Source: a virus
Direction: 5' to 3' (one strand)
DNA length: 32,575 nt
Virus record (IMG/VR): IMGVR_UViG_3300021400_000096
Span: 1-32,575 of that record
The notes under the pieces are model-generated. The model did no database searches and was not told where the DNA came from. It worked only from the letters and a program-made list of their open reading frames with translations. A program made the translations under genes and the position numbers. Of the stretch, positions 1 through 32,575 are shown in pieces; the stretch's first letter is position 1, and each line of letters opens with the position of its first letter.

Positions 1-107
1 TAAATTGATGTACCTTATATTTCAAGGGAAAACAAGGCATTTGTTGGCTACCTGTTGGCTACTCATTAAGTTTTATACATTACTTATTTAATAAAATCAT
101 CAATTTT
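1..107. repeat. Direct terminal repeat, copy 1 (identical to 32469..32575)
   Basis: Exact 107-nt match by eye (taaattgatgtacc...catcaatttt). This is either closure of a circular assembly or true terminal redundancy. Confidence 0.9.
42..62 (+). promoter_or_regulatory. Putative integrase arm-type sites, 2 x TGTTGGCTAC with 11-bp phasing (same DNA as 32510..32530)
   Basis: TGTTGGCTAC at 42..51 and 53..62. The same 10-mer occurs three times just after int. Confidence 0.55.
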
Positions 108-779: not shown

Positions 780-1874
780 TTATTTAATTTTTAATACTTG
801 ACCTGCATAGATGAAATTATAATAGTTGGCTCTGACTCCATGTCTTTGAGCATCACTATCAATTAAAGATTTATTCTTATTATAGATATCTTGCCATGTA
901 GTACCATATTTTTTAGCAATACCACTTAAAGTATCACCTCTTTGTACAGTATATGTAATTGAACTATTAGAAGCCCCTTTATTTGATGAATTAAGTATCT
1001 CATTTACTCTATTTTGAACTTCTGAATAGTTATATCCCTCTGCTTCTAATTTTGTCTTTCTTTCAGGATAATTACCATAATCTCCATTGATTACTTTTTT
1101 AGCAATTTCATCAAGTGATAGTTTTGTACTAGGTGCAGGTGCAGGTGTACTATTTCTACCTACTCCTTTATCAACTAGAGCCTGTACTGCATTATATCTA
1201 GAACCTAAAGCCTGTTTTCTTGCATCACCATTACCAAACTCACCTGTCCATACTCTTCTTGCAAGTTCTTCATCACTTACATTAGGAAATGGGTCTGTTG
1301 TAGGAGTGGATGGAGTATTTTGACTATACTCAACATAATTTAATTTACCATGATTAACCCATGTTCTAGTATTATAGCCACTTTTTTTACCTATATTACC
1401 TACTGCAGTTATTTGTACACCATCTTTCCAAATTGGAGTACACTCTACTGCTAATCCATTACCAATATAGATACCAACATGACCTGACATGTGTACTAAT
1501 TCTCCTACTTGAATATTAGAAAAATTAGTAGATACTCCTGTACAATATTTCATTATACCATCTGCACCTACATCAGGAACACCATTTGATGCATAAGATG
1601 CACCACCATAAATCTTACCTGTATTGCCAGACCATCCCCATAGAATACCTTTAATCAAGCAAACACAATCAAATCCAAATGTATCTGCACTTGCATTTCT
1701 TATTTTAGATGCTCTTGAACTTTGAGCATTATAAGAGTGATGATTGATATACCTTGTTTTATTGGTACTATTCATAGGTGCACCAAAACATCCCATTACA
1801 TATAATGTTTTATATTTTGTTGCAATATCTCTTGCAATATTAGCAAATTGAGTATTATTCATAACTTTACCCAT
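780..1874 (-). CDS. Endolysin: N-terminal Cys/His (NlpC/P60-like) hydrolase, two CW_7-like repeats, C-terminal LysM
   Basis: FDCVCLIKG...GHVGIYIGNG Cys-His motifs. Two repeats of type ARRVWTGEFGNGDARKQALGSRYNAVQALV. LysM signature YTVQRGDTLSGIAKKYG...IYAGQVLKI. GGAGG RBS present. Confidence 0.85.
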   Translation of the reverse strand: MGKVMNNTQFANIARDIATKYKTLYVMGCFGAPMNSTNKTRYINHHSYNAQSSRASKIRNASADTFGFDCVCLIKGILWGWSGNTGKIYGGASYASNGVPDVGADGIMKYCTGVSTNFSNIQVGELVHMSGHVGIYIGNGLAVECTPIWKDGVQITAVGNIGKKSGYNTRTWVNHGKLNYVEYSQNTPSTPTTDPFPNVSDEELARRVWTGEFGNGDARKQALGSRYNAVQALVDKGVGRNSTPAPAPSTKLSLDEIAKKVINGDYGNYPERKTKLEAEGYNYSEVQNRVNEILNSSNKGASNSSITYTVQRGDTLSGIAKKYGTTWQDIYNKNKSLIDSDAQRHGVRANYYNFIYAGQVLKIK

Positions 1875-2491: not shown

Positions 2492-2520
2492 ATCCCTAGC
2501 CCTTTCTGTCTTTAGTGTAC

Positions 2521-2548
2521 ATAAAAAGACAACATTTCTGTTGTCTTT
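2521..2548 (-). terminator. Hairpin plus U-run (late element A)
   Basis: 10-bp stem 2525..2534 / 2539..2548. The loop is GAAA on the minus-strand RNA, followed by TTTTTAT. Confidence 0.6.
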
Positions 2549-2559
2549 ACTACACTTAC

Positions 2560-2591
2560 ATTATAACATACTTCTTGTGTGAGTTTTGTGA
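2560..2591 (-). promoter_or_regulatory. Late promoter-like motif A: TCACA-N4-TCACA-N12-TATAAT
   Basis: On the minus strand, TCACAaaacTCACA lies at 2591..2578 and TATAAT at 2565..2560, with an extended TGt. The same architecture occurs at 19485..19516 and 22454..22485. Confidence 0.5.
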
Positions 2592-2595
2592 TAAT

Positions 2596-2697
2596 TTAGT
2601 TCTCTAGTGCTTCTTCAACTTGTGCTCTCCATCTTTCAGGAACATCTTCAAGAGTCATTTTGTGAAGTTTTATTTGCATAACATAGAACTTAACCAT
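2596..2697 (-). CDS. Small 33-aa XkdX/CD1375-like protein
   Basis: MVKFYVMQIKLHKMTLEDVPERWRAQVEEALEN. Its ATG overlaps the upstream stop (ATGGTTAA). The motif TLEDVPE+W/LR..V is typical of small proteins found after clostridial phage tail fibres. Confidence 0.45.
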   Translation of the reverse strand: MVKFYVMQIKLHKMTLEDVPERWRAQVEEALEN

Positions 2698-3001
2698 TAT
2701 AAATCACCTCTGCCATTTCAACTATAGCATCCTCTAGAGTATTTATTCTATCCTCTAAAGTGATTTTTTCATCTGATGGAGAATAATCTAAATATTTATA
2801 AGGGTCTTTCTTTATCATCTTCTCTGTTATTTCAGATGAATTAATTCTAAATTGATTAAAATCATGAACAAATAAAGTGTTTCCATCTTCATCTGTTACT
2901 TCTTCTACAAATCTGTAAATAAATACATCTGCCAAATCATTTTGTAATGGCATGTATCTATATTCAGGTTGTCTTTCACTAAATACTGCTCTTACTTGCA
3001 T
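2690..3001 (-). CDS. Hypothetical acidic protein (XkdW-like position), not Avd-like
   Basis: The ATG at 3001 lies 9 nt after AGGAGG, while the ORF-track start is 3022. It overlaps the RT 3' end by 23 nt. It is acidic with predicted beta content, unlike basic four-helix Avd proteins. Confidence 0.6.
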   Translation of the reverse strand: MQVRAVFSERQPEYRYMPLQNDLADVFIYRFVEEVTDEDGNTLFVHDFNQFRINSSEITEKMIKKDPYKYLDYSPSDEKITLEDRINTLEDAIVEMAEVIYNG

Positions 3002-4175
3002 TTGATATAACCTCCTTTGCATTTTTTAGAGTCTTTTTTAGTTTTACTTTCTTAAAGTATTTTTTACTCCATGAGTGCTTAAAATAGCCATGATATGATA
3101 CTACTTTATATGCATCCTCTAGAGTCAACTCAAAATTATTTCTTTTTGCTTTTAAATATACCTTATTTGCTCTATCAAATATTCTCTTTCTGATAGTAGT
3201 TTTATAAGTATATATCTTATATCCCATCATATCTATTGGTCTAGAGTCTAGTGGGAATAATTGATATGATGGTTTTAATGTTAAATCCATATTATTCAAG
3301 TATTCTTCAAGCATTTTAGATGCTTTTTTTACATTTTTCTTACTAGAACCTAATAATAATATGTCATCCATATAGAATAAAACATGATTTACAAGATTTA
3401 TTCTATTATCTCTTCTTGTTGTATATAACATTTCACTCACATAATGATATGGATATGATAAAAAGTAGTTAGCAAGGAATTGTGATAAATAAGAGCCTAT
3501 ACATAATCCCTCATCATAAGTATCTATTAATGTATAAAGCAAATAAAGCACTCTATCGTTCTTTATATCTCTTCTTAAATACTTTTTAATGATATCATGA
3601 TTAACACTAGGGTAAAACTTCTTAATATCACACTTAAAAACCCATTTACATTGTTTAGGGTTAGTTCTTATCCATGTTTCAATGGCATTTTTGCCAAATA
3701 TTTGACCTTTTTCTGATAAAGATGCACATTGATAATGCCCTATCTTTGCCAAAAACATCTTTTTACAAGCATTTACTGCAATATAGTCATAACATTGTTG
3801 CTTCATACTTGCAATTCCAATATTTCTCATCTTTTTTGCAGATGTATCATATCTTTCTTCATACATTATTGGAGATAGTTGTATATTATGATTAATTATC
3901 TCTAAATACATCTCTTTAGCAATATAATCAACCATTTTATGCAAGACAGTTCTATCTGTTCTTGCTATTTTTCTTATCCTTTTAGCCAAAATATGAGCAG
4001 GTGGGATATCACTTGTATATTGTGATACCCACTTCTGTACATATTCTGCAATGAAACAAGATGTATCATGTCTTGTCCATCTTTGCTTACCACTTGTAGT
4101 ACCATCCAAGCAATCATAAATGCTATATTTAACAAACTCATAAGATAAATCAAACTTACTTAAATATCTTTTCAT
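2979..4175 (-). CDS. DGR-type reverse transcriptase
   Basis: RT motifs are CDIKKFYPSV, GLCIGSYLSQFLANYFL (the DGR-typical xGxxxSQ), FYMDDILLLG (YMDD at 3363..3374) and LTLKPS...MGYKIY. It lies directly downstream of the TR. Confidence 0.9.
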   Translation of the reverse strand: MKRYLSKFDLSYEFVKYSIYDCLDGTTSGKQRWTRHDTSCFIAEYVQKWVSQYTSDIPPAHILAKRIRKIARTDRTVLHKMVDYIAKEMYLEIINHNIQLSPIMYEERYDTSAKKMRNIGIASMKQQCYDYIAVNACKKMFLAKIGHYQCASLSEKGQIFGKNAIETWIRTNPKQCKWVFKCDIKKFYPSVNHDIIKKYLRRDIKNDRVLYLLYTLIDTYDEGLCIGSYLSQFLANYFLSYPYHYVSEMLYTTRRDNRINLVNHVLFYMDDILLLGSSKKNVKKASKMLEEYLNNMDLTLKPSYQLFPLDSRPIDMMGYKIYTYKTTIRKRIFDRANKVYLKAKRNNFELTLEDAYKVVSYHGYFKHSWSKKYFKKVKLKKTLKNAKEVISNASKSSI

Positions 4176-4387
4176 TTGTTATCATCCTTTCAAGATATCA
4201 GGGACTTTCAGTTTATTTTACTAGCCCCACATTATATCTATATATCATATAATGTCTTTACTAACCCACATTGTGGCTTTCAAGTTGGTGTTACAATCTC
4301 AAAGTTTTAGCAATGCTAGAGTTAATTCAAAATTGAATTATGTCCTACCAAGGTACGGTGTCAAAAATCACTCCTTATATTTTTTAC
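4176..4387 (-). ncRNA. Non-coding TR-RT spacer (presumed 3' part of the DGR template RNA)
   Basis: 212 nt with no minus-strand ORF between TR and RT. It contains short palindromes, for example AATTCAAaaTTGAATT at 4324..4339. The role is inferred from other DGRs. Confidence 0.45.
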
Positions 4388-4497
4388 TTGAAATCCGAGC
4401 GAGGATATTCCAATTCGCATTAGTTACAGTATTATTAGCATTGAGGCAGGAAAGACCGGCATTAGTTCCATTATTCATATTACCGAGCCACAAGAAC
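4388..4497 (-). repeat. DGR template repeat (TR)
   Basis: Aligns with 4656..4765 at a constant offset of 268. It is non-coding here but, in VR frame, would read LFLWLGNMNNGTNAGLSCLNANNTVTNANWNILARIS with 10 AAT codons. Confidence 0.9.
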
Positions 4498-4528
4498 AAT
4501 CCTCTTTTTTTGACATCCTCAACTCAAC

Positions 4529-4537
4529 ATTATATCA
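4529..4537 (-). promoter_or_regulatory. Candidate extended -10 promoter (TGaTATAAT) for the TR-RT transcript
   Basis: The minus strand reads gTGATATAATg about 30 nt upstream of the TR. The -35 is weak (TTCAAT). Confidence 0.35.
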
Positions 4538-4601
4538 CTTTTTATTGATTTATTGAATATTTTGAAAGCATTTAATTTTGAATTTTTATTTTTTCTATAA
4601 T

Positions 4602-4621
4602 CAAGGGGAGAGCCCCTCTTG
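4602..4621 (-). promoter_or_regulatory. GC-rich hairpin immediately after the target-gene stop, about 35 nt 3' of VR
   Basis: CAAGGGGAGAGCCCCTCTTG has a GGGG/CCCC core (4605..4608 and 4613..4616) with flanking pairs. No U-run follows on either strand, so it is not a classic terminator. Confidence 0.5.
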
Positions 4622-4623
4622 TC

Positions 4624-6741
4624 CTATTCGGACAATTCACCCCCAACACCATTGATTGAAAGGCGAGCGAGGAGATACCAATACGCAAAAGCCACAGTAT
4701 TAATAGCATTGAGGCAGGAAAGACCGGCAAGAGTTCCATGATGCAGAGCACCGAGCCACAAGAACTCTCTTTGTCCTGATGTTCCACTATCTACATATAA
4801 ACCATCTGCATAGCCTACAGTAGAACCTGCACCACTTTGACCTGCTTTAGTAGGTACTGCAATTCCATCTTCTGTATCAAAACCATATTCAGTAATATAC
4901 TTCCATCCATTTAATGATGCAGGTTGAATTACTAAATCTGACTTTTTATAATTGTTCTTTGCAGTTGTTATATTTGTAGTAAGGATAGAAGCATTATTTG
5001 TATAATAAACCTCTCTATCTCCTGATGAGTTTACTATGTCCATAAATGCATTTCCTGCTACTTCATATCCACCTACACTCAATTCTATTCCATTGAATAC
5101 CATACCATGCTTACGATTAGTATTTGAGCCAACAGAACCTGTTCTACCTAGAATATCATCACTATATCCACTTCTTTCATGCATAGTTGATACCCAAGTG
5201 GTAGTTGTTGTAGTTATTGGTGCATGTTCTAGAATTAATGCAGTATGTCCACTATCTACTACTTCTTTGCCTATTACTTTTACATCATAGGCTAAATTAT
5301 GCATATATCCTTTACTTCTATCATTATCTGTTGCAGTACCTCTATCACCTACTGATACATAAGTATTAATATCAATATTATTTGCCTGTGCAGTAGTTAA
5401 TACTACTCTATTAACATTTGACTCTGCAACAGATACATTATATTGATAATTATTCTCTGTATTACCACCTAGAATTGATTGAGTATTCTTTGTTGCAAAT
5501 TGAAGATAGAAAGTAGTTAATATATGCATATAGTCAGACATTAATCCTGCACTATAATAAGAACCTTTTTGATGCATCAAACCAACACATCCACTATATG
5601 ATATACCATCTGAAAACTCTTCATCACCTGTTGGATTAGATAAGTAGTGAGCAGGTATTAATCCTTTAGAACTATATAAAGTTCCATCAATATCTCCTAC
5701 CACATATTTACCAATTGTGAACCAAGGACTAATAGTACCATCTTTATTTATAGCCTGTGGCACTACATTATAGCCTTTTCTAGGCATAAATGACCTAGAA
5801 ATGTATAAATATCCATCCTCTTCCCAAATCTTCTGATAATAGGTTCTAAATAAGCAGAAAACATCAACTTTTCCTGTATCTTTATAGTTTGGCATACCTT
5901 TAATTGATGTTACATGTCTTACACCATTGCTATCAACTACTGCATTAACATCATAACTTTGCCATGCTTCACTATAATTATTAACTTCCTCAACTGTATC
6001 TGTTGCAGGAGTTATTGATTTACCAATATTTGCATCTAATTTTTCACCTTGACATGTATTACTTGTATCCCATAAAGGAAATCTAACAGTATATACACCA
6101 TAATCAGGAGTCAAAGCAAAATGATTTTTGATACTCTCTTCAATTCTCTTTGAATTACCCCACTCACTAAAGGTAATACCTGTTGTTTCTTCGGCATCTT
6201 CCTCTATTTGTAAGGCATTTGCATTAAATCCATCTAATTTTGCATCATAATTGCTATTAAATGTATCTAATAGACTTGAAGCATTTGTATTAAACTCTTG
6301 TAATTTTGCTTCTGCATTTGCATTATAGGTAGGAATTAATCCCTCAACTCTATTAATTAAATCATCTAGTATTTGATAATTACTATCTGACTCAATATCA
6401 CTAGGGTCAATTTCTAATCCACTATCTACTACTTCAATAAGACATTTTTTACTATTTGTTAATTTACTATCTTCATCATATATTGATACACCAAAGAAAT
6501 ATCTACCTGTTACATCAAATATAGATGGGTCATCAATAGTTACTCTATTATTATTAATAGAAGTAACATAAACTTTGCCATTTGGCTTTAATAAATAAAA
6601 TAATTGTAGTGTACCTGTTTTACTAAATTGAAAAACAAGGTCAACTGAATTATAATCACCCTTAACTAGAGTGATAACATCTGATGTTAAACTATCAGAA
6701 CCCTCAAAATTAACTAAAACATTAAATATTTTATTTTCCAT
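4624..6741 (-). CDS. Tail fibre / receptor-binding protein, DGR target with C-terminal C-type-lectin-like variable tip
   Basis: 705 aa, last gene of the tail module. The C-terminus is ...EFLWLGALHHGTLAGLSCLNAINTVAFAYWYLLARLSINGVGGELSE. The W.G....AG....N pattern is typical of CLec-fold DGR variable regions. Confidence 0.85.
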   Translation of the reverse strand: MENKIFNVLVNFEGSDSLTSDVITLVKGDYNSVDLVFQFSKTGTLQLFYLLKPNGKVYVTSINNNRVTIDDPSIFDVTGRYFFGVSIYDEDSKLTNSKKCLIEVVDSGLEIDPSDIESDSNYQILDDLINRVEGLIPTYNANAEAKLQEFNTNASSLLDTFNSNYDAKLDGFNANALQIEEDAEETTGITFSEWGNSKRIEESIKNHFALTPDYGVYTVRFPLWDTSNTCQGEKLDANIGKSITPATDTVEEVNNYSEAWQSYDVNAVVDSNGVRHVTSIKGMPNYKDTGKVDVFCLFRTYYQKIWEEDGYLYISRSFMPRKGYNVVPQAINKDGTISPWFTIGKYVVGDIDGTLYSSKGLIPAHYLSNPTGDEEFSDGISYSGCVGLMHQKGSYYSAGLMSDYMHILTTFYLQFATKNTQSILGGNTENNYQYNVSVAESNVNRVVLTTAQANNIDINTYVSVGDRGTATDNDRSKGYMHNLAYDVKVIGKEVVDSGHTALILEHAPITTTTTTWVSTMHERSGYSDDILGRTGSVGSNTNRKHGMVFNGIELSVGGYEVAGNAFMDIVNSSGDREVYYTNNASILTTNITTAKNNYKKSDLVIQPASLNGWKYITEYGFDTEDGIAVPTKAGQSGAGSTVGYADGLYVDSGTSGQREFLWLGALHHGTLAGLSCLNAINTVAFAYWYLLARLSINGVGGELSE
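4656..4765 (-). repeat. DGR variable repeat (VR) in the last ~37 codons of the tail-fibre gene
   Basis: 17 mismatches to the TR. Sixteen are at plus-strand T in the TR, which is A in the coding sense (TR 4394, 4406, 4409, 4415, 4420, 4421, 4424, 4425, 4435, 4462, 4463, 4472, 4475, 4478, 4480, 4481). One is non-A (TR 4395 / VR 4663). Confidence 0.9.
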
Positions 6742-6758
6742 ATCTTTCTACCTCCTCT

Positions 6759-8285
6759 TTAACTTGTTCTAGTCCATAAATAAAATGTCTTATCTACTCC
6801 ACTAATAAACTTCCCTGATGTAGTTAATTCCCATGTAGTACCTGTTAATACAGTTTGTGGATTAACATTTGTTGTTGTCATCTTACAAGAACCTATTGGG
6901 AATAAATCAAAAAAGTTTATTCCATTTACAAACAAACTATTTGCAACAGATGGGAAACAATTAATACCTATAGATTGTAATAATATATCTATAAATAATA
7001 TTGGCATACCTTTTGGTACTACTAGATTGTAAGTAGTTGTACCAAACTTATCTTGTATAACTACTTGAAAATCCCAAGCAAACAACTTATCAATAACAAC
7101 AGTTGTTTCTACATTATCACTTAAAGATGTATAACTGTTATATGATGATGTTCCTGATTTTCTATATCTATATTTTATTGATTGGATTGCATTTTTGTTA
7201 TTTACTGATGAAATGGTAACTGCAACCTTTAACTTTGTGTCATCTTCATAGTTATTTACCCTTTTTGCAAGGATAGATGCAGTAGGTAGAACCCAACCTA
7301 ATATAGTTATTGTTTTTGATGCAGTTGTACTATTTCCTCTACTATCAACTGCTTTAATTGATACTGATAAGTTTTGACTAGAATTAACAGTACCATAATT
7401 AATTGTTGTTGGTGATGTTTTATTTTGAGTTGAACCATTAAATGTAACCTCATATCTGACAATTGATGCAGATTTCTTTGCAGTTGCACCTGTAAATGTT
7501 ACTTCTAAATTAGACCTATTTTGTACTATATGTTGATTATTACCTGTAATAGCAACAATTGAACTGTTTGTATCTTCATAAGAGATATTAGAACTTGCAA
7601 AAGTTGGATTTCCATTGACAATTGTCATGGTTTTATCTTGCCAAGACCAAAATTGTTCTGTTGTACCACTTATACAAGTTGCAATAACCTCTCTTACTGT
7701 CATAGAATTACCTGTACATTTTTGCCTTAATAATTCTCTTTCTGCACTTGTAAGATTAAATGTATAAGTGCCACTATTTCCAATATTATCTCTTTGAATA
7801 TTAACCCCACCAAACTCTAATCTAGCATTTAATCTAAATCCTCCGGGATTATTATATTTTATTGTAGGATTTTGTTCATCATTAAAATCTGTAGCACTTG
7901 TAACATTTGCTTGTCTAGGTATTGTTGATAAAGGACAACTTCCATTGTAAGTATTATTTCTATTGTAATAAACACTACCTTTTAATGTAAATCCAACATC
8001 TGATGCAGTACCATCATTATTATGGGTAACAGTTACTGTACCCTCTCTTGAACCTGTTGATGCAGGGAAATTATAAGAGTTCCAATTAGTAGTTTGAGTT
8101 CCATACTTTTCTTGTCCATGTACCCAAACACCCCAATTGTAGATAGTATAATAATTAACATTACCACCAATTGACTCTAATTTCCATCTAACAGTAGAGG
8201 TATTATTAGCAATATTTGTGCTTTCTTCCCAAACACTTAATTTTAAGTATCTTCCATCATAAGACCCTGTTTGAACACTTGCCAT
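6759..8285 (-). CDS. Tail-associated structural protein (baseplate / host-specificity, beta-rich)
   Basis: 508 aa, rich in S/T/N, located between Tal and the fibre. The N-terminus resembles siphovirus upper-baseplate or DUF859-like proteins, recalled from memory only. Confidence 0.6.
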   Translation of the reverse strand: MASVQTGSYDGRYLKLSVWEESTNIANNTSTVRWKLESIGGNVNYYTIYNWGVWVHGQEKYGTQTTNWNSYNFPASTGSREGTVTVTHNNDGTASDVGFTLKGSVYYNRNNTYNGSCPLSTIPRQANVTSATDFNDEQNPTIKYNNPGGFRLNARLEFGGVNIQRDNIGNSGTYTFNLTSAERELLRQKCTGNSMTVREVIATCISGTTEQFWSWQDKTMTIVNGNPTFASSNISYEDTNSSIVAITGNNQHIVQNRSNLEVTFTGATAKKSASIVRYEVTFNGSTQNKTSPTTINYGTVNSSQNLSVSIKAVDSRGNSTTASKTITILGWVLPTASILAKRVNNYEDDTKLKVAVTISSVNNKNAIQSIKYRYRKSGTSSYNSYTSLSDNVETTVVIDKLFAWDFQVVIQDKFGTTTYNLVVPKGMPILFIDILLQSIGINCFPSVANSLFVNGINFFDLFPIGSCKMTTTNVNPQTVLTGTTWELTTSGKFISGVDKTFYLWTRTS

Positions 8286-8295
8286 AAAACACCTC

Positions 8296-9963
8296 CTATA
8301 CTACTGCAACATAGCCAATACCATCATTGACTATATTTCCATTTTCTGTAATAGTTATTGGGATTTCTCTTAACTTATTAGCAATTGTTATTTCCTCTTC
8401 AACTACTGATTTTCTTTGATGAAACTCATCACCATCAACCCAATATGTTTTAACATTGTTTACATCATAACCTGCAAAACCTACTTCCGGATTAATCTTA
8501 ATATATGAATTATCATTATTAAAAAAAGTTAATCCTGTCTTATCTAAAAGACAAATTAACCTATTTGTTTCATCATATAATTCCATTGTTCCAGACTCAT
8601 TTAAGTTAGAACCTAATTTTAATGTTCCACCTTTAATCATATCTGCAACTAAATTAATAACATTAATCTGTTGCATGTCTAAAGTTCCATCAATAGTCCA
8701 TGCAGAATTAAATGTACCATTAATACCTGTTTGACTAAAACCTATTCCACCATTGCTAATCATGATACATTTTCTTGCAGTTTCTTTTGGTAAAGCATCA
8801 ACTACAAGTATTTTATCTCCATCATAAATACAATAAGACTCTCCCATTGATTGTCTTATTTTTTCTGTGGCTTCTGTTAATTCAGACTCTAATTTAGCAA
8901 TAATTTCATTGTTTTCTTTCTTTACTTCATTTGTAATTGATGATGTTACTGTTTGAATTAAGTTTTTTAATTTACTTTTAAAATTACCAAACTCTATCTT
9001 TGTATATTTATTTGCAATTGCATCATATTCTATAGCAATTACATTTGTAGTTAAATTGATTTTACATTTGGGATGATTAACATATATAATATCTCCTACA
9101 TCTGATACATTTTTTATATAAGCATCAACAGAATAATTAACTCTAGGTACTTTATTTACATTTAAGTATTCTTGAGCCTTGTTTCTTAAATCATTTATTA
9201 ATGCTTGATTATAAGCATTTTCATCTAATTCTCCATCAATAGTATAATCATCTTCAACTATATTACTTTGGTCAAAAGATATAACTTTTGATTTTGGAGT
9301 ATCATATAATTGTGTATCAAGTTCTATATAAGTTTCAGGTAACATAATACCATCTTTACCAACAGGTAATATTTTAGTTAAAACATTATCCCAAATCTCT
9401 TTTTTTACCATTTTTTTGATGTTTTTTTCATAAGATAATACAATTCCTCTATCTTCACCTATTTCATCTCTTATAGCCACATTAAAGCCATCTCTAACAA
9501 GGTGTCCTCCCCACCTTTCAACTACTGTTGCAAAGGCTTCTTCTAAAGAGTGTCTTATACATCTAAAAGAATTAACTCTAGTTACATCAGAAATAGTTGT
9601 AAATGGAGATGGATTATCTGTAGCCATATTAAGATGGTCTAAAGCATCATTACAATTCTTATCTACAACATAACTATCTCTAATAATATAATTTTTACTA
9701 TCAAAATACACATGATATGCTTTACAAGTTATAATATCATTTTCTACATTTGGATTAGTCAACCTAAATGGTTGATATCCCCATGGTGTTGATACCCTTA
9801 TAATCATATCTGCTTGATAATAATCAATAAAATCAATTTTATCCTTAATATCTAAATAATAATCTCCATTATCTTCTTTTCTAATTAATGCTTTTAATGG
9901 TTTTAATATTTTTAGACCATTATCATTAAAATCTTTTTCTGTAGATGGATATACACTAATCAT
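8296..9963 (-). CDS. Tail-associated lysin-type protein (Tal; phage minor structural protein N-terminal family)
   Basis: The start MISVYPSTEKDFNDNGLKILKPL... is typical of Tal or prophage tail endopeptidase N-termini. The ATG at 9963 overlaps the Dit stop (TAATG) after AGGTGG. Confidence 0.75.
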   Translation of the reverse strand: MISVYPSTEKDFNDNGLKILKPLKALIRKEDNGDYYLDIKDKIDFIDYYQADMIIRVSTPWGYQPFRLTNPNVENDIITCKAYHVYFDSKNYIIRDSYVVDKNCNDALDHLNMATDNPSPFTTISDVTRVNSFRCIRHSLEEAFATVVERWGGHLVRDGFNVAIRDEIGEDRGIVLSYEKNIKKMVKKEIWDNVLTKILPVGKDGIMLPETYIELDTQLYDTPKSKVISFDQSNIVEDDYTIDGELDENAYNQALINDLRNKAQEYLNVNKVPRVNYSVDAYIKNVSDVGDIIYVNHPKCKINLTTNVIAIEYDAIANKYTKIEFGNFKSKLKNLIQTVTSSITNEVKKENNEIIAKLESELTEATEKIRQSMGESYCIYDGDKILVVDALPKETARKCIMISNGGIGFSQTGINGTFNSAWTIDGTLDMQQINVINLVADMIKGGTLKLGSNLNESGTMELYDETNRLICLLDKTGLTFFNNDNSYIKINPEVGFAGYDVNNVKTYWVDGDEFHQRKSVVEEEITIANKLREIPITITENGNIVNDGIGYVAVV

Positions 9964-10661
9964 TATAACCACCTACTTTTTGGCTCTACTATTAATTTAG
10001 TTAAATTACCTGTCCAACTGATAGTATTGACTCCTACATCTAAAATAGGAAAATTGCCTGACATTTTTCTGTTTTTTAATATTAATCCTTTGTATGCTTC
10101 TAATTGCATAGAGTCAATTACAACAAACTCATCATCAATATTAACTGTAAAAACATCATAACCATTTATAGTTAATGTTACCTCACCATCACCATATAAA
10201 GTAATAATAGGTTTTGATTTCTCAAGACCTACATTTGTTACTTTAACCTCTGTTTCATTTGTTATATTAAACACAAATGGAGGTTCATTTAAAGCATATT
10301 TAAATGGTTGAACATGAAATGTTACTTTAGCAGTTCTAAATGTCAAAAGTCTTTCATAATCAACTTTACTGTATATTTGTGCTTTATATACTTTATCAGG
10401 TTCATTTGATAAAACTAAATCTCCTGAACCACTAAAATATTTTATTATTTTATCTATATTATTAGAGTTTTTTAATCCTATTTTGATAGATTTATTATAT
10501 GCTCTATAACCTAATTCATCTACAATATCACCATCTGCACCATCTATTTCAGTAATATCTACTCTTATTTCAGGGGATGAGATAGGAGATAATTCACTTA
10601 TAACCAAATTATCAAATGTATTACTATTAATACCTTTAAAAATTAAATAATTCTTACTCAT
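9963..10661 (-). CDS. Distal tail protein (Dit)
   Basis: 232 aa, located between the tape measure and Tal, with overlapping start and stop codons. Confidence 0.7.
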   Translation of the reverse strand: MSKNYLIFKGINSNTFDNLVISELSPISSPEIRVDITEIDGADGDIVDELGYRAYNKSIKIGLKNSNNIDKIIKYFSGSGDLVLSNEPDKVYKAQIYSKVDYERLLTFRTAKVTFHVQPFKYALNEPPFVFNITNETEVKVTNVGLEKSKPIITLYGDGEVTLTINGYDVFTVNIDDEFVVIDSMQLEAYKGLILKNRKMSGNFPILDVGVNTISWTGNLTKLIVEPKSRWL

Positions 10662-19519: not shown

Positions 19520-21268
19520 TTAAGCAACTTGAACAAAAAAGTTTCCATTTTCAAGAAATACTTCTTGTTGTAATAGATAAATACTATTAATAAGTGCTAC
19601 AACCATATCTATTTTTCCATTTGATTTCTTTTTATTAACATATCTGTTCATATTAGTATCATATACACATCTAGCATTTTGAAAGTTTATCTCTAATAGT
19701 TTATTTTCTTCATATTCAAACTTTCCATCCATAATCTTCTCATAAAGTAATTTAGTAGGTGGATGCAAAGTATCAGAGTGTTGTCTTATTTGAACTGTAT
19801 TGTATTTTTCATCCCATTTTTGAGCAGATGATAATGCATTATATCTATCATATCCTATTGCCATTACAACTACATCATATTTACTTTCTATTGCAAAGAC
19901 AAAATCCTCTATAACTTTATAATCAACAGTTCTATCACCACATGCAATACATTTCATTGCATTAATAAACTCATAATAATTAACTTTTTCAAATTGATTT
20001 TTTTCTTCAATTCTTCCCTCCGGTATAAATGATATTGCTTCTGCCAATATCTTATCATCATCATTACTTGTCATTGCTACTGCACAGTTATCATTTGACA
20101 TTGATAAGTCAACACCAATATATACCTCTTTACCTGTCCAATCAATTTTTTCAACTTTGCATTTTTGAACTTCTGTTACATCAACAAAACTCTCTGTACC
20201 TGCTCCTTGATAAATAATATTACAATGTTTTGTTAAAAAGTTTTCTCTTTTACTTTCAATCTCAATTGCTTTTCTTCTTTTATCAAGTAAATCTTTATAT
20301 ACTGCTTCTATCTCTAATGCAAGAGGGTTAGATTGCAATATAATATTATCATCTGATGTCCAATTTTTAGTTTCATTTGGTTCATATAATAATGCAAATA
20401 CTTTTTCATCATCAATAATACCATCTAAAACTTTTTTAGCATATCCTGTTTCATCTTCCATAGGATTATCAGTTGTTGGATATTTAGTTGAAATAATAAA
20501 ACCTAATTTATTTATTACTAATAATTGTCCTGACCTCATGGCTTCAATAGGATATGCACTTGGTAATGCTCCAACTTCATCTGCAACAAAAACAGATGGC
20601 TCTTTACCATCCATCCTGTCTTTTGAATAATTTAAAGGTGTATATACTGTATCTGTTGCAGTATGTCTGATGCAATCTCTTAATATTTTAAACTCACCCT
20701 CTTCAAAAATATTAGCATTTGCCTTTATTAATGGTTCTAGGGCTTGTTTTATTTCTTTTGCTAGTGCTCCATCAGGTGCTACAGAGAAAAATCTAGAATA
20801 TTTTGGCTCTAGATAAAATAACAATAGAATAATAAGAGCAACTATAAATGTTTTACCATTTTTTCTACATATCTCTAATATGATTGTTTCGTATCTTCTT
20901 TTTCTTTTGTTATCTCTATAGACAGTACATAGACTCGCAACAATAATTAACCATTGATAACCTGATAATGCATTATATATTTTATGTCCTGTCTTAATAC
21001 CTTTAGCCATAACTAATATCTTACATATCTTATCAATCTTTTTTATTCTATTGGTATCAATGATGTATTTACTTGTTTTATTATCTGCTATATCCAAAAA
21101 TATCTTACATTGTTTTTTTACATACTTTGGAGGTATGAACTTTTTCTCACCATTTAATTCATAAAACAATGGTGGTGGTTTGATTGTTCCATCAACTATC
21201 TTTTTGGCATAAATATAACTTGGATGACTCTCAATAATATTATTCTTCATTGTCATCATCATCTTCAT
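19520..21268 (-). CDS. terL: Terminase large subunit
   Basis: 582 aa with a Walker A-like RKNGKTF and the typical size and position. Several in-frame ATGs at the N-terminus make the start ambiguous. Confidence 0.9.
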   Translation of the reverse strand: MKMMMTMKNNIIESHPSYIYAKKIVDGTIKPPPLFYELNGEKKFIPPKYVKKQCKIFLDIADNKTSKYIIDTNRIKKIDKICKILVMAKGIKTGHKIYNALSGYQWLIIVASLCTVYRDNKRKRRYETIILEICRKNGKTFIVALIILLLFYLEPKYSRFFSVAPDGALAKEIKQALEPLIKANANIFEEGEFKILRDCIRHTATDTVYTPLNYSKDRMDGKEPSVFVADEVGALPSAYPIEAMRSGQLLVINKLGFIISTKYPTTDNPMEDETGYAKKVLDGIIDDEKVFALLYEPNETKNWTSDDNIILQSNPLALEIEAVYKDLLDKRRKAIEIESKRENFLTKHCNIIYQGAGTESFVDVTEVQKCKVEKIDWTGKEVYIGVDLSMSNDNCAVAMTSNDDDKILAEAISFIPEGRIEEKNQFEKVNYYEFINAMKCIACGDRTVDYKVIEDFVFAIESKYDVVVMAIGYDRYNALSSAQKWDEKYNTVQIRQHSDTLHPPTKLLYEKIMDGKFEYEENKLLEINFQNARCVYDTNMNRYVNKKKSNGKIDMVVALINSIYLLQQEVFLENGNFFVQVA

Positions 21269-21740
21269 TTAAAATATCCATTAATGTTTTTTTCTTTTGT
21301 GGTGTTGTATTAATAGATATCTTTGCTCTTGCTTGAGGTGATAATGACAATTCATTACAACATCTAAAAAAGTCTTTAGAATACATATCTCTAACTGATT
21401 TTAAATTAATAATTGTCTTGGCATCTAATTTATCCTTTACTTTACCATCATCATCTGTTACCTTACTTGCTTCATTGATAGCCTTTTCTATACTTTCCAA
21501 TCTCTCAATAGTAATAGCAGTTTGATTTAATAAGTAAGTATCTAAATTACTTAAAATGTCTTTATTAAGATTATTCAGAATATCTTTAAAGATTGCTTTT
21601 TGTCTTTTTGTAAGATATGAAAATGGTTTTATTTTGTTATTATCTCCTCTTAACTTTTTTTCATTTTCTTCTCTATCTTTTCTTTCTTTTTTACTCATCT
21701 TCATTGAGTTAGTATCAATTGCTTTTGCTGGTCTTGCCAT
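21240..21740 (-). CDS. terS: Terminase small subunit (P27 family-like)
   Basis: MARPAKAID... with a basic N-terminus and an acidic tail. The ATG at 21740 lies 7 nt after GGAGGTG. The ORF-track start at 21749 is a GTG. Confidence 0.8.
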   Translation of the reverse strand: MARPAKAIDTNSMKMSKKERKDREENEKKLRGDNNKIKPFSYLTKRQKAIFKDILNNLNKDILSNLDTYLLNQTAITIERLESIEKAINEASKVTDDDGKVKDKLDAKTIINLKSVRDMYSKDFFRCCNELSLSPQARAKISINTTPQKKKTLMDILNEDDDDNEE

Positions 21741-21789
21741 AAAAATCACCTCCTAATCCAACCAACAGTTGATGAAATTTTCATTTTAG

Positions 21790-21890
21790 GCATTTTTCAC
21801 ACTTTTAGGGGGCAGGTAGGTTTTGAAGCAATTAAAAAAAATAAGATTAATGGGTAGGGGGGATGGTTATACCCTCTACCTCTGCCCTTA
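21790..21890. other. Candidate cos/packaging recognition region
   Basis: GC-rich islands AGGGGGCAGGTAGG (21807..21820) and its approximate inverse CCTCTACCTCTGCCCT (21873..21888) lie at the HNH/terS junction of an AT-rich genome. This is inference only. Confidence 0.25.
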
Positions 21891-22278
21891 TTTTCTCTAA
21901 ATCTGCATCAGGATAGGTAAGGCTTTTTAGTATATTTCTTGGTATTACATTTGAGTCAGATAATTTATGATGATAACAACATAAAGTAATTAAGTTATCA
22001 TCATCTAATCTCTTGCTATAATCCTCCTCTAAAGGAACAATATGATGCACTTCTAACTTATTAAAATTAAAAACATGTTGAGTATCAAAAATATTAGCAA
22101 GACAACATCTACATAAATGCTTATCCCTAGCCCTTATTTCTTCACTCTTTTTATGCCATTTATAAGTCTTTCTGAACTTATCTGCATCAGATATACCCCT
22201 TACCTGTCTATTTTTGTAACATACCTTATTAAAATCGTGTATCTTTCCACACCTACTGCAACTCTTTAGCATAAACAT
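21847..22278 (-). CDS. HNH endonuclease (packaging-associated)
   Basis: Contains CSRCGK...C, HHIVPL, N..LCCYHH motifs. It lies immediately upstream of terS, as in HK97-like cos phages. Confidence 0.85.
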   Translation of the reverse strand: MFMLKSCSRCGKIHDFNKVCYKNRQVRGISDADKFRKTYKWHKKSEEIRARDKHLCRCCLANIFDTQHVFNFNKLEVHHIVPLEEDYSKRLDDDNLITLCCYHHKLSDSNVIPRNILKSLTYPDADLEKIRAEVEGITIPPTH

Positions 22279-23590: not shown

Positions 23591-24220
23591 TTAACTTCCT
23601 AAATAAAAGTTTTTCCTTTTATCGTTTTTATCTGAATTATCCCAACAGATATATAATAATGTTACTCTTTCATTTGAGTGATTTAACATTTCTTTTAATC
23701 CTATGATATCTCCTGTCTTTTCATAGTATGACCTAGCAAAATACTTTCTCAATGAGTGGCATCCAACAGGATAGCCTACTTTTACCTCATCAGATAATTG
23801 TTTTATTACTTGCCATGCTCTTTGTCTAGTAATTGGCATATTAATACCTTTTCTACTCTTAAATAAATACTCTCCCTCAATTAAATCATTTCTATTAATA
23901 TAATCTGTAATATCTTTTGCTAATGATGGATGCAATTCAAATGATTGCTCCTTATTTGTTTTAAACTCTCTTGTATATACTGAACCATTTTTAAAATTAT
24001 CAACTTTTAATTGTAAAATATCTTCAATCCTAAAGGCAAGGTTCATACCTATAACTAATATCATGTAATTTCTATCCCATAGGTATTGTTGTTCTTTATC
24101 ACCATCATCCTCTGCTTGATTTCTTCTTTTTTTACAATTAATTATCATATTATCAATATCAGGTTTCTTAAATGGTTGTACTGTTTTTCTTCCGAACTTA
24201 ATTCTAAATGTTCTACTCAT
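23591..24220 (-). CDS. Short tyrosine recombinase (catalytic domain only)
   Basis: The R...HxxR...H...Y set is present: AFRIEDIL, CHSLRKYFA, LNHSN, VTLLYI. At 209 aa it has no room for an N-terminal core- or arm-binding domain. Confidence 0.7.
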   Translation of the reverse strand: MSRTFRIKFGRKTVQPFKKPDIDNMIINCKKRRNQAEDDGDKEQQYLWDRNYMILVIGMNLAFRIEDILQLKVDNFKNGSVYTREFKTNKEQSFELHPSLAKDITDYINRNDLIEGEYLFKSRKGINMPITRQRAWQVIKQLSDEVKVGYPVGCHSLRKYFARSYYEKTGDIIGLKEMLNHSNERVTLLYICWDNSDKNDKRKNFYLGS

Positions 24221-32468: not shown

Positions 32469-32575
32469 TAAATTGATGTACCTTATATTTCAAGGGAAAA
32501 CAAGGCATTTGTTGGCTACCTGTTGGCTACTCATTAAGTTTTATACATTACTTATTTAATAAAATCATCAATTTT
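32469..32575. repeat. Direct terminal repeat, copy 2 (identical to 1..107)
   Basis: Exact match to the window start. Confidence 0.9.
32510..32530 (+). promoter_or_regulatory. Integrase arm-type sites, 2 x TGTTGGCTAC (attP P' arm)
   Basis: Copies at 32510..32519 and 32521..32530, in the same orientation and phasing, about 140 bp from the first cluster. Confidence 0.55.

Follow-up and report, generated by a model that had tools for sequence, protein, structure and literature searches.

Diversity-generating retroelements (DGRs) that rewrite the tail fibres of phages are well documented, and a class of them without any accessory gene is already known from gut phages (Wu et al. 2018, PMC5758913; Roux et al. 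2021, PMC8144416). The targets of viral DGRs are mostly tail proteins (PMC8144416), and accessory-free elements made up 29% of the census of Wu et al., from which mutagenic homing independent of Avd was inferred (PMC5758913). In the RNA of the prototype, Bordetella phage BPP-1, sequence upstream of the template repeat (TR) pairs with spacer positions Sp 59-70, and this duplex is followed by a short stem-loop and unpaired adenosines, an ensemble termed the 'cPRT Stop'; the primer strand is immediately on its 5' side, whereas the TR itself is directly followed by a stem-loop that binds Avd (Sp 3-33) (bioRxiv 10.1101/2023.10.23.563531). The survey of RNA elements by Handa et al. was confined to 278 Avd-bearing DGRs (bioRxiv 10.1101/2023.10.23.563531). 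Homing in BPP-1 also needs a hairpin or cruciform with a GRNA loop 4-34 bp after the variable repeat (VR) (Guo et al. 2011, PMC3240598). The reported consensus for Avd-type phage DGRs is a GC-rich stem of 7-10 bp with a 4-nt GRNA loop, and a CTTT loop abolished BPP-1 homing (PMC3240598). How accessory-free DGRs prime and terminate cDNA synthesis is a question raised in 2018. Here we analysed the IMG/VR virus record IMGVR_UViG_3300021400_000096 over its full 32,575 nt (hereafter the window), in which a preliminary description had proposed a DGR aimed at a tail-fibre tip. With a probability of about 0.9, in our estimate, the window carries a functional accessory-free (Avd-less) DGR on the complete genome of a temperate siphophage-like phage of a gut host of Bacilli/Erysipelotrichaceae type. 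Since the accessory-free gut-phage class is known, this element adds one more example to it; its value lies in being a compact, naturally active, Avd-less single-protein DGR with an RNA model supported by covariation.

A repeat search of the window returned one direct repeat of 110 nt, with 85% identity between TR and VR, and an adenine-tolerant scan of both strands found no third copy and no second VR in the window. Read on the coding strand, the two repeats differ at 17 of 110 positions, and 16 of these 17 mismatches fall on adenines of the TR, a bias with a hypergeometric p of 3e-10 given that the TR has 30 adenines in its 110 nt. The lone mismatch elsewhere (G4395 in the TR, C4663 in the VR) adjoins the A4394/C4662 difference at the 3' end. 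Between VR and TR lie 158 nt, and the TR ends 212 nt before the start of the reverse transcriptase (RT) gene. The preliminary description had reported the 110-bp TR, its matching VR and the 212-nt distance to the RT, and all three were recovered at the same positions on the minus strand; its observation that the repeats form GC-rich islands also agrees with our values of 40% GC for the TR and 49% for the VR in a window of 28.6% GC. Its placement of the VR in the last ~37 codons of the target was right as to the proximity of the C-terminus and needs adjusting in detail, because the VR covers codons 659-696 of 705 and is followed by nine further codons and the stop. Within the TR, 17 codons bear adenines, 11 of them being AAT, and no stop codon can arise from their mutation; the theoretical repertoire amounts to 4.4e14 proteins.

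The comparison of related genomes revealed the same adenine specificity at a larger scale. A protein search retrieved RT copies with 98-100% identity, and ten loci with the whole target gene, from ten different samples, were fetched; together with the window they form a population set of 11 assembled near-identical phage genomes, compared at the level of assemblies. The VR was different in each of the ten related genomes. Mean pairwise identity was 82.5% for the VR, 96.0% for the rest of the target, 98.5% for the TR, 99.2% for the RT and 100% for the 212-nt spacer between TR and RT, whose one change is an A6/A7 length difference directly behind the TR. Variable columns made up 2.5% of the RT and 10% of the target, and the spacer was without substitutions. 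The 37 variable VR columns comprised 27 with an adenine in every TR, eight that follow a polymorphism of the TR, and two lone changes at other bases. VR differences not restricted to TR adenines, which the preliminary description had named as evidence that would speak against a DGR, were not seen: 55% of adenine sites were changed versus 2 of 825 non-adenine sites in the 11 genomes. TR adenines were replaced by all three other bases (T 65, C 58, G 39). Each of the ten related genomes had 13-19 TR/VR mismatches at adenines and one or two at other bases, always including the fixed boundary position described below.

The direction and the recency of the transfer can be read from the same data set. 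Eight TR polymorphisms at bases other than adenine (window positions 4720, 4717, 4711, 4705, 4698, 4697, 4695 and 4685) are mirrored in the VR of the same genome, and this reappearance in the cognate VR demonstrates that information flows from TR to VR. Two genomes from different runs (L053 and L054) differ at 17 adenine sites of the VR and are identical over the remaining 3.65 kb of the 3.76-kb region, and another pair (L056 and L057) differs at three such sites. Differences limited to VR adenines between otherwise identical genomes indicate that the element was active recently. At the 3' end of the VR, the GC-rich element CCTCGCTCG is common to VR and TR and invariant in 11 of 11 genomes. 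The two nucleotides after it are CC in the VR (4662-4663) and GA in the TR (4394-4395), again fixed in 11 of 11 genomes; because this difference is never transferred, it appears to mark the 3' limit of information transfer, comparable to the pair formed by the initiation of mutagenic homing (IMH) element and its TR counterpart IMH*. By analogy with BPP-1, CCTCGCTCG would serve as the IMH of this DGR.

The RT of 398 aa matches Pfam RVT_1 at 2.6e-14 and phrog_1423 ('reverse transcriptase') with 231 bits. Across 31 RT homologues (alignment A6), I226, G227, S228 and Q232 of the first motif and Y268, M269, D270 and D271 of the second are invariant. Many relatives have IGSYLCQ instead of the IGSYLSQ found here (residues 226-232), so that within this clade the serine of the 'SQ' hallmark of DGRs varies. 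By sequence, the top match of the RT in the PDB was 8ub7_A (E 2e-9), identified as the BPP-1 bRT from the aligned residues I181, G182, Q187, D215 and D216, followed by group II intron RTs (2e-4 and 7e-3) and a retron-type RT (9e-3). A fold search in the PDB with the AlphaFold2 model (predicted local distance difference test, pLDDT, 84) gave the same order, with the bRT ribonucleoprotein states 8ubd and 8ub7 in first place (E 7e-14) and the G2L4 and GsI-IIC RTs next (1e-11 to 2e-10). The ranking of PDB matches by sequence and by model thus supports a closer relationship to DGR RTs than to those of group II introns or retrons, and the grouping with group II intron, retron or Abi RTs that would have contradicted the preliminary description was not obtained; the open reading frame (ORF) of 398 aa with the motifs IGSYLSQ and YMDD was located where that description had placed it. 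The model also has three confident N-terminal helices (residues 12-94) ahead of the fingers, and the phmmer alignment pairs residue 114 with residue 71 of bRT, which implies about 43 extra residues before the fingers. A role as a defence RT was considered and rejected, since PADLOC returned weak, generic RT-domain matches only. In one related locus (L058; 4001-5125 of ERZ28617736 scaffold_395) the called RT has 374 aa instead of 398 and the region contains 1 extra nt, both of which suggest a frameshift close to the 3' end of the gene. Of the two VR substitutions outside adenine sites, one (C to T, corresponding to window position 4727) belongs to the same locus, and its DGR may be beginning to decay in the prophage.

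The 705-aa target follows the DUF859 and Prophage_tail genes, precedes the lysis cassette and belongs to phrog_17147 (unknown function, 4.5e-81). Its homologues have the C-terminal 72% in common and swap their N-terminal modules, which include BppU_N, collagen and PF11133. Such swapping of N-terminal modules is the usual modular build of receptor-binding tail proteins. The preliminary description had called for a structure of the fibre C-terminus and a search for a C-type lectin fold. Our AlphaFold2 model of residues 195-705, which includes the VR, had a pLDDT of 94 and a predicted template modelling score of 0.93, and TaqVP (5vf4), a variable protein of another DGR, was its top PDB match (E 4e-7, probability 1.0), Mtd (1yu0) being listed further down; the matches to DGR variable proteins have 12-13% identity and a TM-score of 0.34-0.44 over a multi-domain model. 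In BFVD, 36 matches fell below 1e-3, most of them named tail collar fiber, with FGE-sulfatase-like and TvpA-like proteins among the others. In this model, the VR probably lies in a fold of C-type-lectin type near the C-terminus of the target.

The order target/VR, TR and RT on one strand, which the preliminary description had regarded as canonical, was confirmed as an order; the avd gene of the prototype is missing, so the layout is that of an accessory-free variant. Pfam gave no match to the Avd family in any of 31 window ORFs scanned, none of the three proteins compared with NCBIfam (RT, target and the product of the ORF that follows the RT) matched Avd, and the VR-TR and TR-RT gaps contain no ORF. 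An acidic ORF of 103 or 110 aa shares 23-44 nt with the 3' end of the RT gene and had no match in Pfam (even at E 10), PHROGs, NCBIfam or PADLOC. It was rejected as an Avd candidate on account of its pI of 4.4, the lack of any family match and its place in the slot of small tail-associated genes in PBSX-like phages; the pI of Avd is 9.5 (PMC5758913). This ORF was called, at 103 or 110 aa, at the same position in every related locus that extends past the RT, and an ORF of 33 aa is called next in related loci (e.g., L046 5479-5580), both filling the position of small tail genes before XhlA. With a simple adenine-tolerant finder, the compact VR-TR-RT layout was detected in 44 of the 55 relatives examined; a strict version of this finder missed or shortened the TR and VR of a few loci, namely L001, L002 and those at contig edges, and these were then set by hand. 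The VR-TR gap of the relatives spans 68-335 nt (mostly about 110-170 nt), and their TR and RT are usually about 200-240 nt apart, the outliers ranging between 133 and 361 nt. The avd-less compact layout is kept across phages of Bacilli, Erysipelotrichaceae and Lachnospiraceae hosts.

Table 1. Coordinates of the DGR parts, of its RNA and DNA elements and of selected phage genes in the window.
Feature	Position	Strand	Remark
DGR target, 705-aa distal tail protein (probable tail-fibre/receptor-binding type)	4624..6741	(-)	assigned from gene order and fold
Variable repeat (VR)	4656..4765	(-)	110 nt, codons 659-696 of the target
GC-rich IMH-like element CCTCGCTCG	4664..4672	(-)	3' end of VR; TR copy at 4396-4404
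Hairpin A, TTGTCC-GAATA-GGACAA	4619..4635	(-)	spans the target stop codon; 21 nt after VR
Hairpin B, AGGGG-CTCT-CCCCT	4604..4617	(-)	directly after hairpin A; 39 nt after VR
Extended -10 element TGATATAAT	4529..4537	(-)	putative promoter of TR-spacer-RT transcript
Leader strand GGAUGUCAAAA of leader:spacer duplex	4508..4518	(-)	pairs with 4357-4366, encloses the TR
Template repeat (TR)	4388..4497	(-)	110 nt
Helix 1, 5' strand	4385..4393	(-)	UUUCAAG at 4387-4393, 3' edge of TR
Spacer, structured non-coding RNA	4176..4387	(-)	between TR and RT start; eight helices
Spacer strand UUUUGACACC of leader:spacer duplex	4357..4366	(-)	short stem-loop directly after
Short stem-loop GUACC-UUGG-UAGGAC	4342..4356	(-)	directly after the duplex strand, then AUAAU
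Conserved stretch GAGAUUGUAACACCAA, predicted unpaired	4285..4300	(-)	nearly invariant in nine Bacilli-clade relatives; unpaired in RNAalifold
Last spacer hairpin, GGGGCU/AGUCCC stem, loop AGUAAAAUAAACUGAA	4201..4228	(-)	loop consensus of the family UAGUAGAAAAACCGAAA
Helix 1, 3' strand	4188..4196	(-)	CUUGAAA at 4188-4194, just 5' of the RT ribosome-binding site (RBS) AAAGGA
DGR RT, 398 aa	2979..4175	(-)	RVT_1, phrog_1423; GLCIGSYLSQ and FYMDD
Acidic 103/110-aa ORF, pI 4.4	2690-3022	(-)	overlaps the RT 3' end
DUF859 tail protein	6759-8285		
Prophage_tail gene	8296-9972		
HNH endonuclease ORF and small terminase subunit	21847-22278 and 21240-21749	(-)	HNH directly upstream of small terminase
Integrase, 347 aa	31269-32312	(+)	at the other genome end; from gene calls of relatives

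The spacer is predicted to form a structured RNA whose helices show compensatory changes. RNAalifold on eight relatives predicted 44 pairs in the spacer, 21 of them with compensatory changes, and a covariance model built on it detected the element in 30 loci, each time directly ahead of the RT gene, with RT identities as low as about 37%. In the alignment fitted to this model, 94.5% of cells were paired and 40 of 44 pairs had a compensatory change, versus 36-48% paired cells in slid controls. Rfam returned no family for the spacer, either at the gathering threshold or at E 1. Helix 1 links the 3' edge of the TR to the sequence before the RT RBS and has compensatory changes in seven of its eight pairs (29 sequences), exemplified by the change from UUCAAG:CUUGAA to UCUUGA:UCAAGA in the Lachnospiraceae clade. 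The leader ahead of the TR pairs with the spacer in a duplex of 10 pairs (97.8% of cells paired and four compensatory pairs in the plain MAFFT alignment A5 of nine sequences), and in the Lachnospiraceae clade an equivalent duplex is formed by different sequences (UGUAACGCU:AGCGUUACA and covarying variants). The five pairs of the stem-loop directly after the duplex are 100% paired on A5, and a compensatory change from U-A to C-G occurs in L060. Because helix 1 crosses the leader:spacer duplex, the topology is that of a pseudoknot. The last hairpin of the spacer has six pairs, five of them compensatory in the model-fitted alignment (A4), and its loop is kept even where the RT is 37% identical. 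The stretch GAGAUUGUAACACCAA may be a protein-contact segment, by analogy with the 'Thumb Ring' of BPP-1. In the slot of the Avd-binding stem-loop, the 20 nt from the TR edge to the duplex strand are AU-rich and RNAalifold predicts no helix there.

A TATAAT-type -10 sequence is present about 11-12 nt upstream of the leader strand of the duplex in nine of nine Bacilli-clade relatives, preceded by TG in eight of the nine, and judged from this sequence conservation the extended -10 element TGATATAAT would act as the promoter of the RNA. The site was absent from the list returned by a two-hexamer promoter scan. Another sigma-70-like site, within the spacer (4337-4364, minus strand; TTGACA-16-CATAAT, 11/12), coincides in part with the spacer strand of the Stop-like duplex and with the stem-loop that follows; the relatives do not conserve its -10, and its occurrence is probably due to chance, although it could give an RT-only transcript in this phage.

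On the target side, two hairpins follow the VR in tandem. Hairpin A, obtained from a DNA fold, has a 6-bp stem and the loop GAATA; it recurs at this location in 18 diverse relatives, separated by 5 nt from a preceding conserved GTGAAT and with stems that differ in a compensating manner, and GRNA-like loops (GGCA, GACA) occur in it in some relatives of the Lachnospiraceae clade. Hairpin B has a 5-bp stem whose GGGG/CCCC is conserved even with an RT only 37% identical, and a loop of 3-5 nt, mostly 4. A terminator scan of 2500-7000 found none, and hairpin B is without a T-tract. Hairpin A is a candidate for the hairpin or cruciform by which the target is recognized.

Taken together, the evidence fits the following sequence of events. 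A promoter about 30 nt upstream of the TR would give rise to one RNA composed of the leader, the TR, the 212-nt spacer and the RT mRNA. In this RNA, the leader would pair with the spacer and close the TR into a loop, resembling the 'cPRT Stop' of BPP-1, from which a stop function is suggested by analogy, and the remaining spacer would fold into a conserved multi-helix domain in which one helix links the TR 3' edge to the pre-RBS sequence. The RT would then copy the TR into cDNA with misincorporation opposite adenines only, and this cDNA would replace the VR in the tail-fibre gene, with the 3' limit of transfer at CCTCGCTCG and two conserved hairpins downstream. The outcome would be the randomization of 17 codons of the C-type-lectin-like tip, yielding up to about 4e14 proteins and no stop codons, on a surface that may bind the host receptor.

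Several observations weigh against parts of this scheme. The per-sequence RNAduplex energies of leader versus spacer gave mostly insignificant z-scores, because AU-rich sequences pair promiscuously, and the duplex is supported by covariation instead. Alignment A4 was fitted to the covariance model and hence favours the structure; the plain MAFFT alignments A3 and A5 back the same helices. The site of priming is ambiguous, and the pairing of a spacer GAG with a TR CUC (GRG:CYC; one covarying pair, 80% pairing) is kept as a tentative candidate for the template:primer contact. The loops of the two target hairpins, GAATA and CTCT, do not fit the GRNA consensus of Avd-type phage DGRs; with the hairpins conserved and their loops of another type, the element departs from the prototype at this point. 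Furthermore, Pfam has no family for the target, and its receptor-binding role is deduced from gene order and fold. Because that role derives from synteny and fold only, the switching of host receptors that the preliminary description expected is best kept as a conditional statement. In line with this, the 705-aa protein, lacking a Pfam family and assigned to a PHROG of unknown function, might instead be another exposed protein of the virion or the lysogen, such as a mucus or glycan adhesin or a decoration fibre, whose diversification would leave the host range unchanged. We regard this as unlikely, given that its gene closes the structural module and is followed by XhlA, the holin and the endolysin, that its homologues swap N-terminal anchoring modules such as BppU_N, and that its BFVD neighbours are mostly tail collar fiber or tail fiber proteins, in keeping with the predominance of tail proteins among viral DGR targets (PMC8144416).

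The absence of avd admits another explanation, namely that a real DGR makes use of an accessory factor, Avd-like or of another kind, that acts in trans and is encoded on the host chromosome or in another prophage. The bRT of BPP-1 depends on Avd for its activity (bioRxiv 10.1101/2023.10.23.563531), our Avd search covered the phage genome, avd genes are poorly conserved (PMC5758913) so that a divergent one could be missed, and a host-encoded factor of this kind would also count against an Avd-independent element. Nevertheless, the avd-less compact layout is conserved across phages of three host groups, Wu et al. did not detect an avd elsewhere in genomes whose DGRs are accessory-free (PMC5758913), and the slot that holds the Avd-binding stem-loop in BPP-1 is here a short AU-rich stretch with no predicted helix; supply in trans therefore appears improbable to us. 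By far the least credible account is that an ordinary duplication or gene conversion stands next to an unrelated group II intron, retron or defence RT, with the adenine bias arising from AT-rich mutation pressure. The genome is indeed AT-rich (28.6% GC), neither the RT nor the target nor the ORF downstream of the RT reached the cut-off of any NCBIfam model, and the RT gave only sub-threshold generic matches, to the NCBIfam group II intron model (59 bits; cut-off 300 bits) and to PADLOC RT_UG4 (56 bits). However, AT pressure would create A and T rather than strip A from one copy, and TR adenines are replaced by all three bases; genomes identical elsewhere differ only at VR adenine sites, and TR variants at other bases are copied into the VR. 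In addition, bRT is the best match of the RT by both structure and sequence, and Rfam detected neither intron RNA domains nor retron msr/msd. The reading of the locus as an active accessory-free DGR thus accounts best for the data as a whole. We further propose, tentatively and with rather more doubt than confidence, that this clade carries out Avd-independent mutagenic retrohoming in which the helical N-terminal extension of the RT and the enlarged, pseudoknotted spacer RNA replace the positioning provided by the Avd pentamer. If this is true, the RNA, consisting of the Stop duplex, the helix between TR edge and pre-RBS sequence and six further helices, is an undescribed RNA family, and the cassette of ~1.6 kb is a minimal single-protein DGR.

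The surrounding genome is consistent with this assignment. An exact terminal direct repeat of 107 nt (window 1-107 = 32469-32575) identifies the window as a circularly closed, complete assembly, the real genome being about 32,468 bp. As part of the joint best explanation, the phage is a complete 32.5-kb temperate siphophage-like genome, and its host is an uncultured gut bacterium of Bacilli/Erysipelotrichaceae type. The gene order of the window is typical of a temperate siphophage: the small terminase is followed by a head completion protein and an HK97-gp10-like tail component, and downstream of DUF859 come the target, TR, RT, two small ORFs, XhlA, a Dp-1 holin and a CW_7/LysM endolysin. An HNH ORF directly upstream of the small terminase is the usual arrangement in HNH-dependent cos packaging. 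Owing to the circular closure, the integrase adjoins a 121-aa ORF (367-732), as it does in related contigs. A second, short integrase (209-aa ORF of the Phage_integrase family, 23591-24220, minus strand, E 9e-19) lies in the middle of the early/replication region. The tRNA scan of the phage found none. A nucleotide search of the phage collection returned a single weak match (66% identity over 16% of the query), indicating that there is no close cultured relative. Relatives of the RT were found in metagenome-assembled genomes of uncultured Bacilli and Erysipelotrichaceae from rabbit, roe deer and probably rumen (RUG label), and more distant ones (37-39% identity) in Lachnospiraceae such as Hespellia, Dorea and Coprococcus. 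Bacterial genes (acetyltransferase, methyltransferase, response regulator) lie beyond the phage end in some related contigs (L051 8273-9197, L058 8354-8866), showing that the phage also exists as an integrated prophage; these flanks could reveal the host. The endolysin (window 780-1874) differs among phages whose RTs are 98-100% identical. Its forms are a 364-aa protein with CW_7, LysM and a weak NlpC/P60 match, proteins of 337-341 aa with CHAP, CW_7 and LysM, and one of 349 aa (compared loci: L046, L049 and L058, 6357-7370; L052, 6360-7409; L056, 6322-7347). The small ORF preceding the endolysin is also variable among the same phages, and the variation of the endolysin points to mosaic exchange of the lysis module.

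With regard to the question of priming and termination raised in 2018, the cassette offers elements that can be tested directly, all within window 4173-4770 plus the RT, namely the promoter, the Stop-like duplex, the TR-edge helix and the two target hairpins. It might also become a smaller chassis for targeted protein diversification in Gram-positive hosts.

Compared with the DGR of BPP-1 (mtd-avd-TR-brt), the element described here likewise has a TR/VR pair with adenine-specific mutagenesis, a VR close to the end of a tail-fibre gene whose product resembles DGR variable proteins in fold, a GC-rich element that closes the VR on its 3' side and is followed by fixed TR/VR differences, and a hairpin that includes the target stop codon. 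The RT likewise has the motifs IGxxxSQ and YMDD, with bRT as its nearest solved structure, and a short stem-loop comes after the duplex that the spacer forms with the leader ahead of the TR, in the order of the cPRT Stop. In contrast to BPP-1, there is no avd gene and no stem-loop in the Avd-binding slot; the RT has 398 aa instead of 328, with about 43 more residues before the fingers; the spacer has 212 nt and eight helices versus 140 nt; two tandem hairpins with the loops GAATA and CTCT, not GRNA, follow the VR; and a putative promoter of its own, instead of the avd coding sequence, precedes the TR. In the order of its components (target-TR-RT) and the lack of an accessory gene, the element corresponds to Architecture A1 of Wu et al. 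2018, and by component order alone we liken it to their avd-less 'Lineage 3'. Sublineage 3A is confined to Bacteroides and relatives (PMC5758913), whereas this clade is found in Bacilli, Erysipelotrichaceae and Lachnospiraceae, and relative to that study (PMC5758913) the RNA structure and the population evidence are new. The target differs from TaqVP (5vf4), Mtd (1yu0) and TvpA in being larger and in having the N-terminal modules of a phage tail fibre. Finally, the element resembles the viral DGR clades 1, 4 and 6 of Roux et al. 2021 (PMC8144416) in being phage-encoded and gut-associated with a host of Firmicutes type, in having a tail-protein target with a VR domain of C-type-lectin type, and in its apparently constant activity in natural populations.

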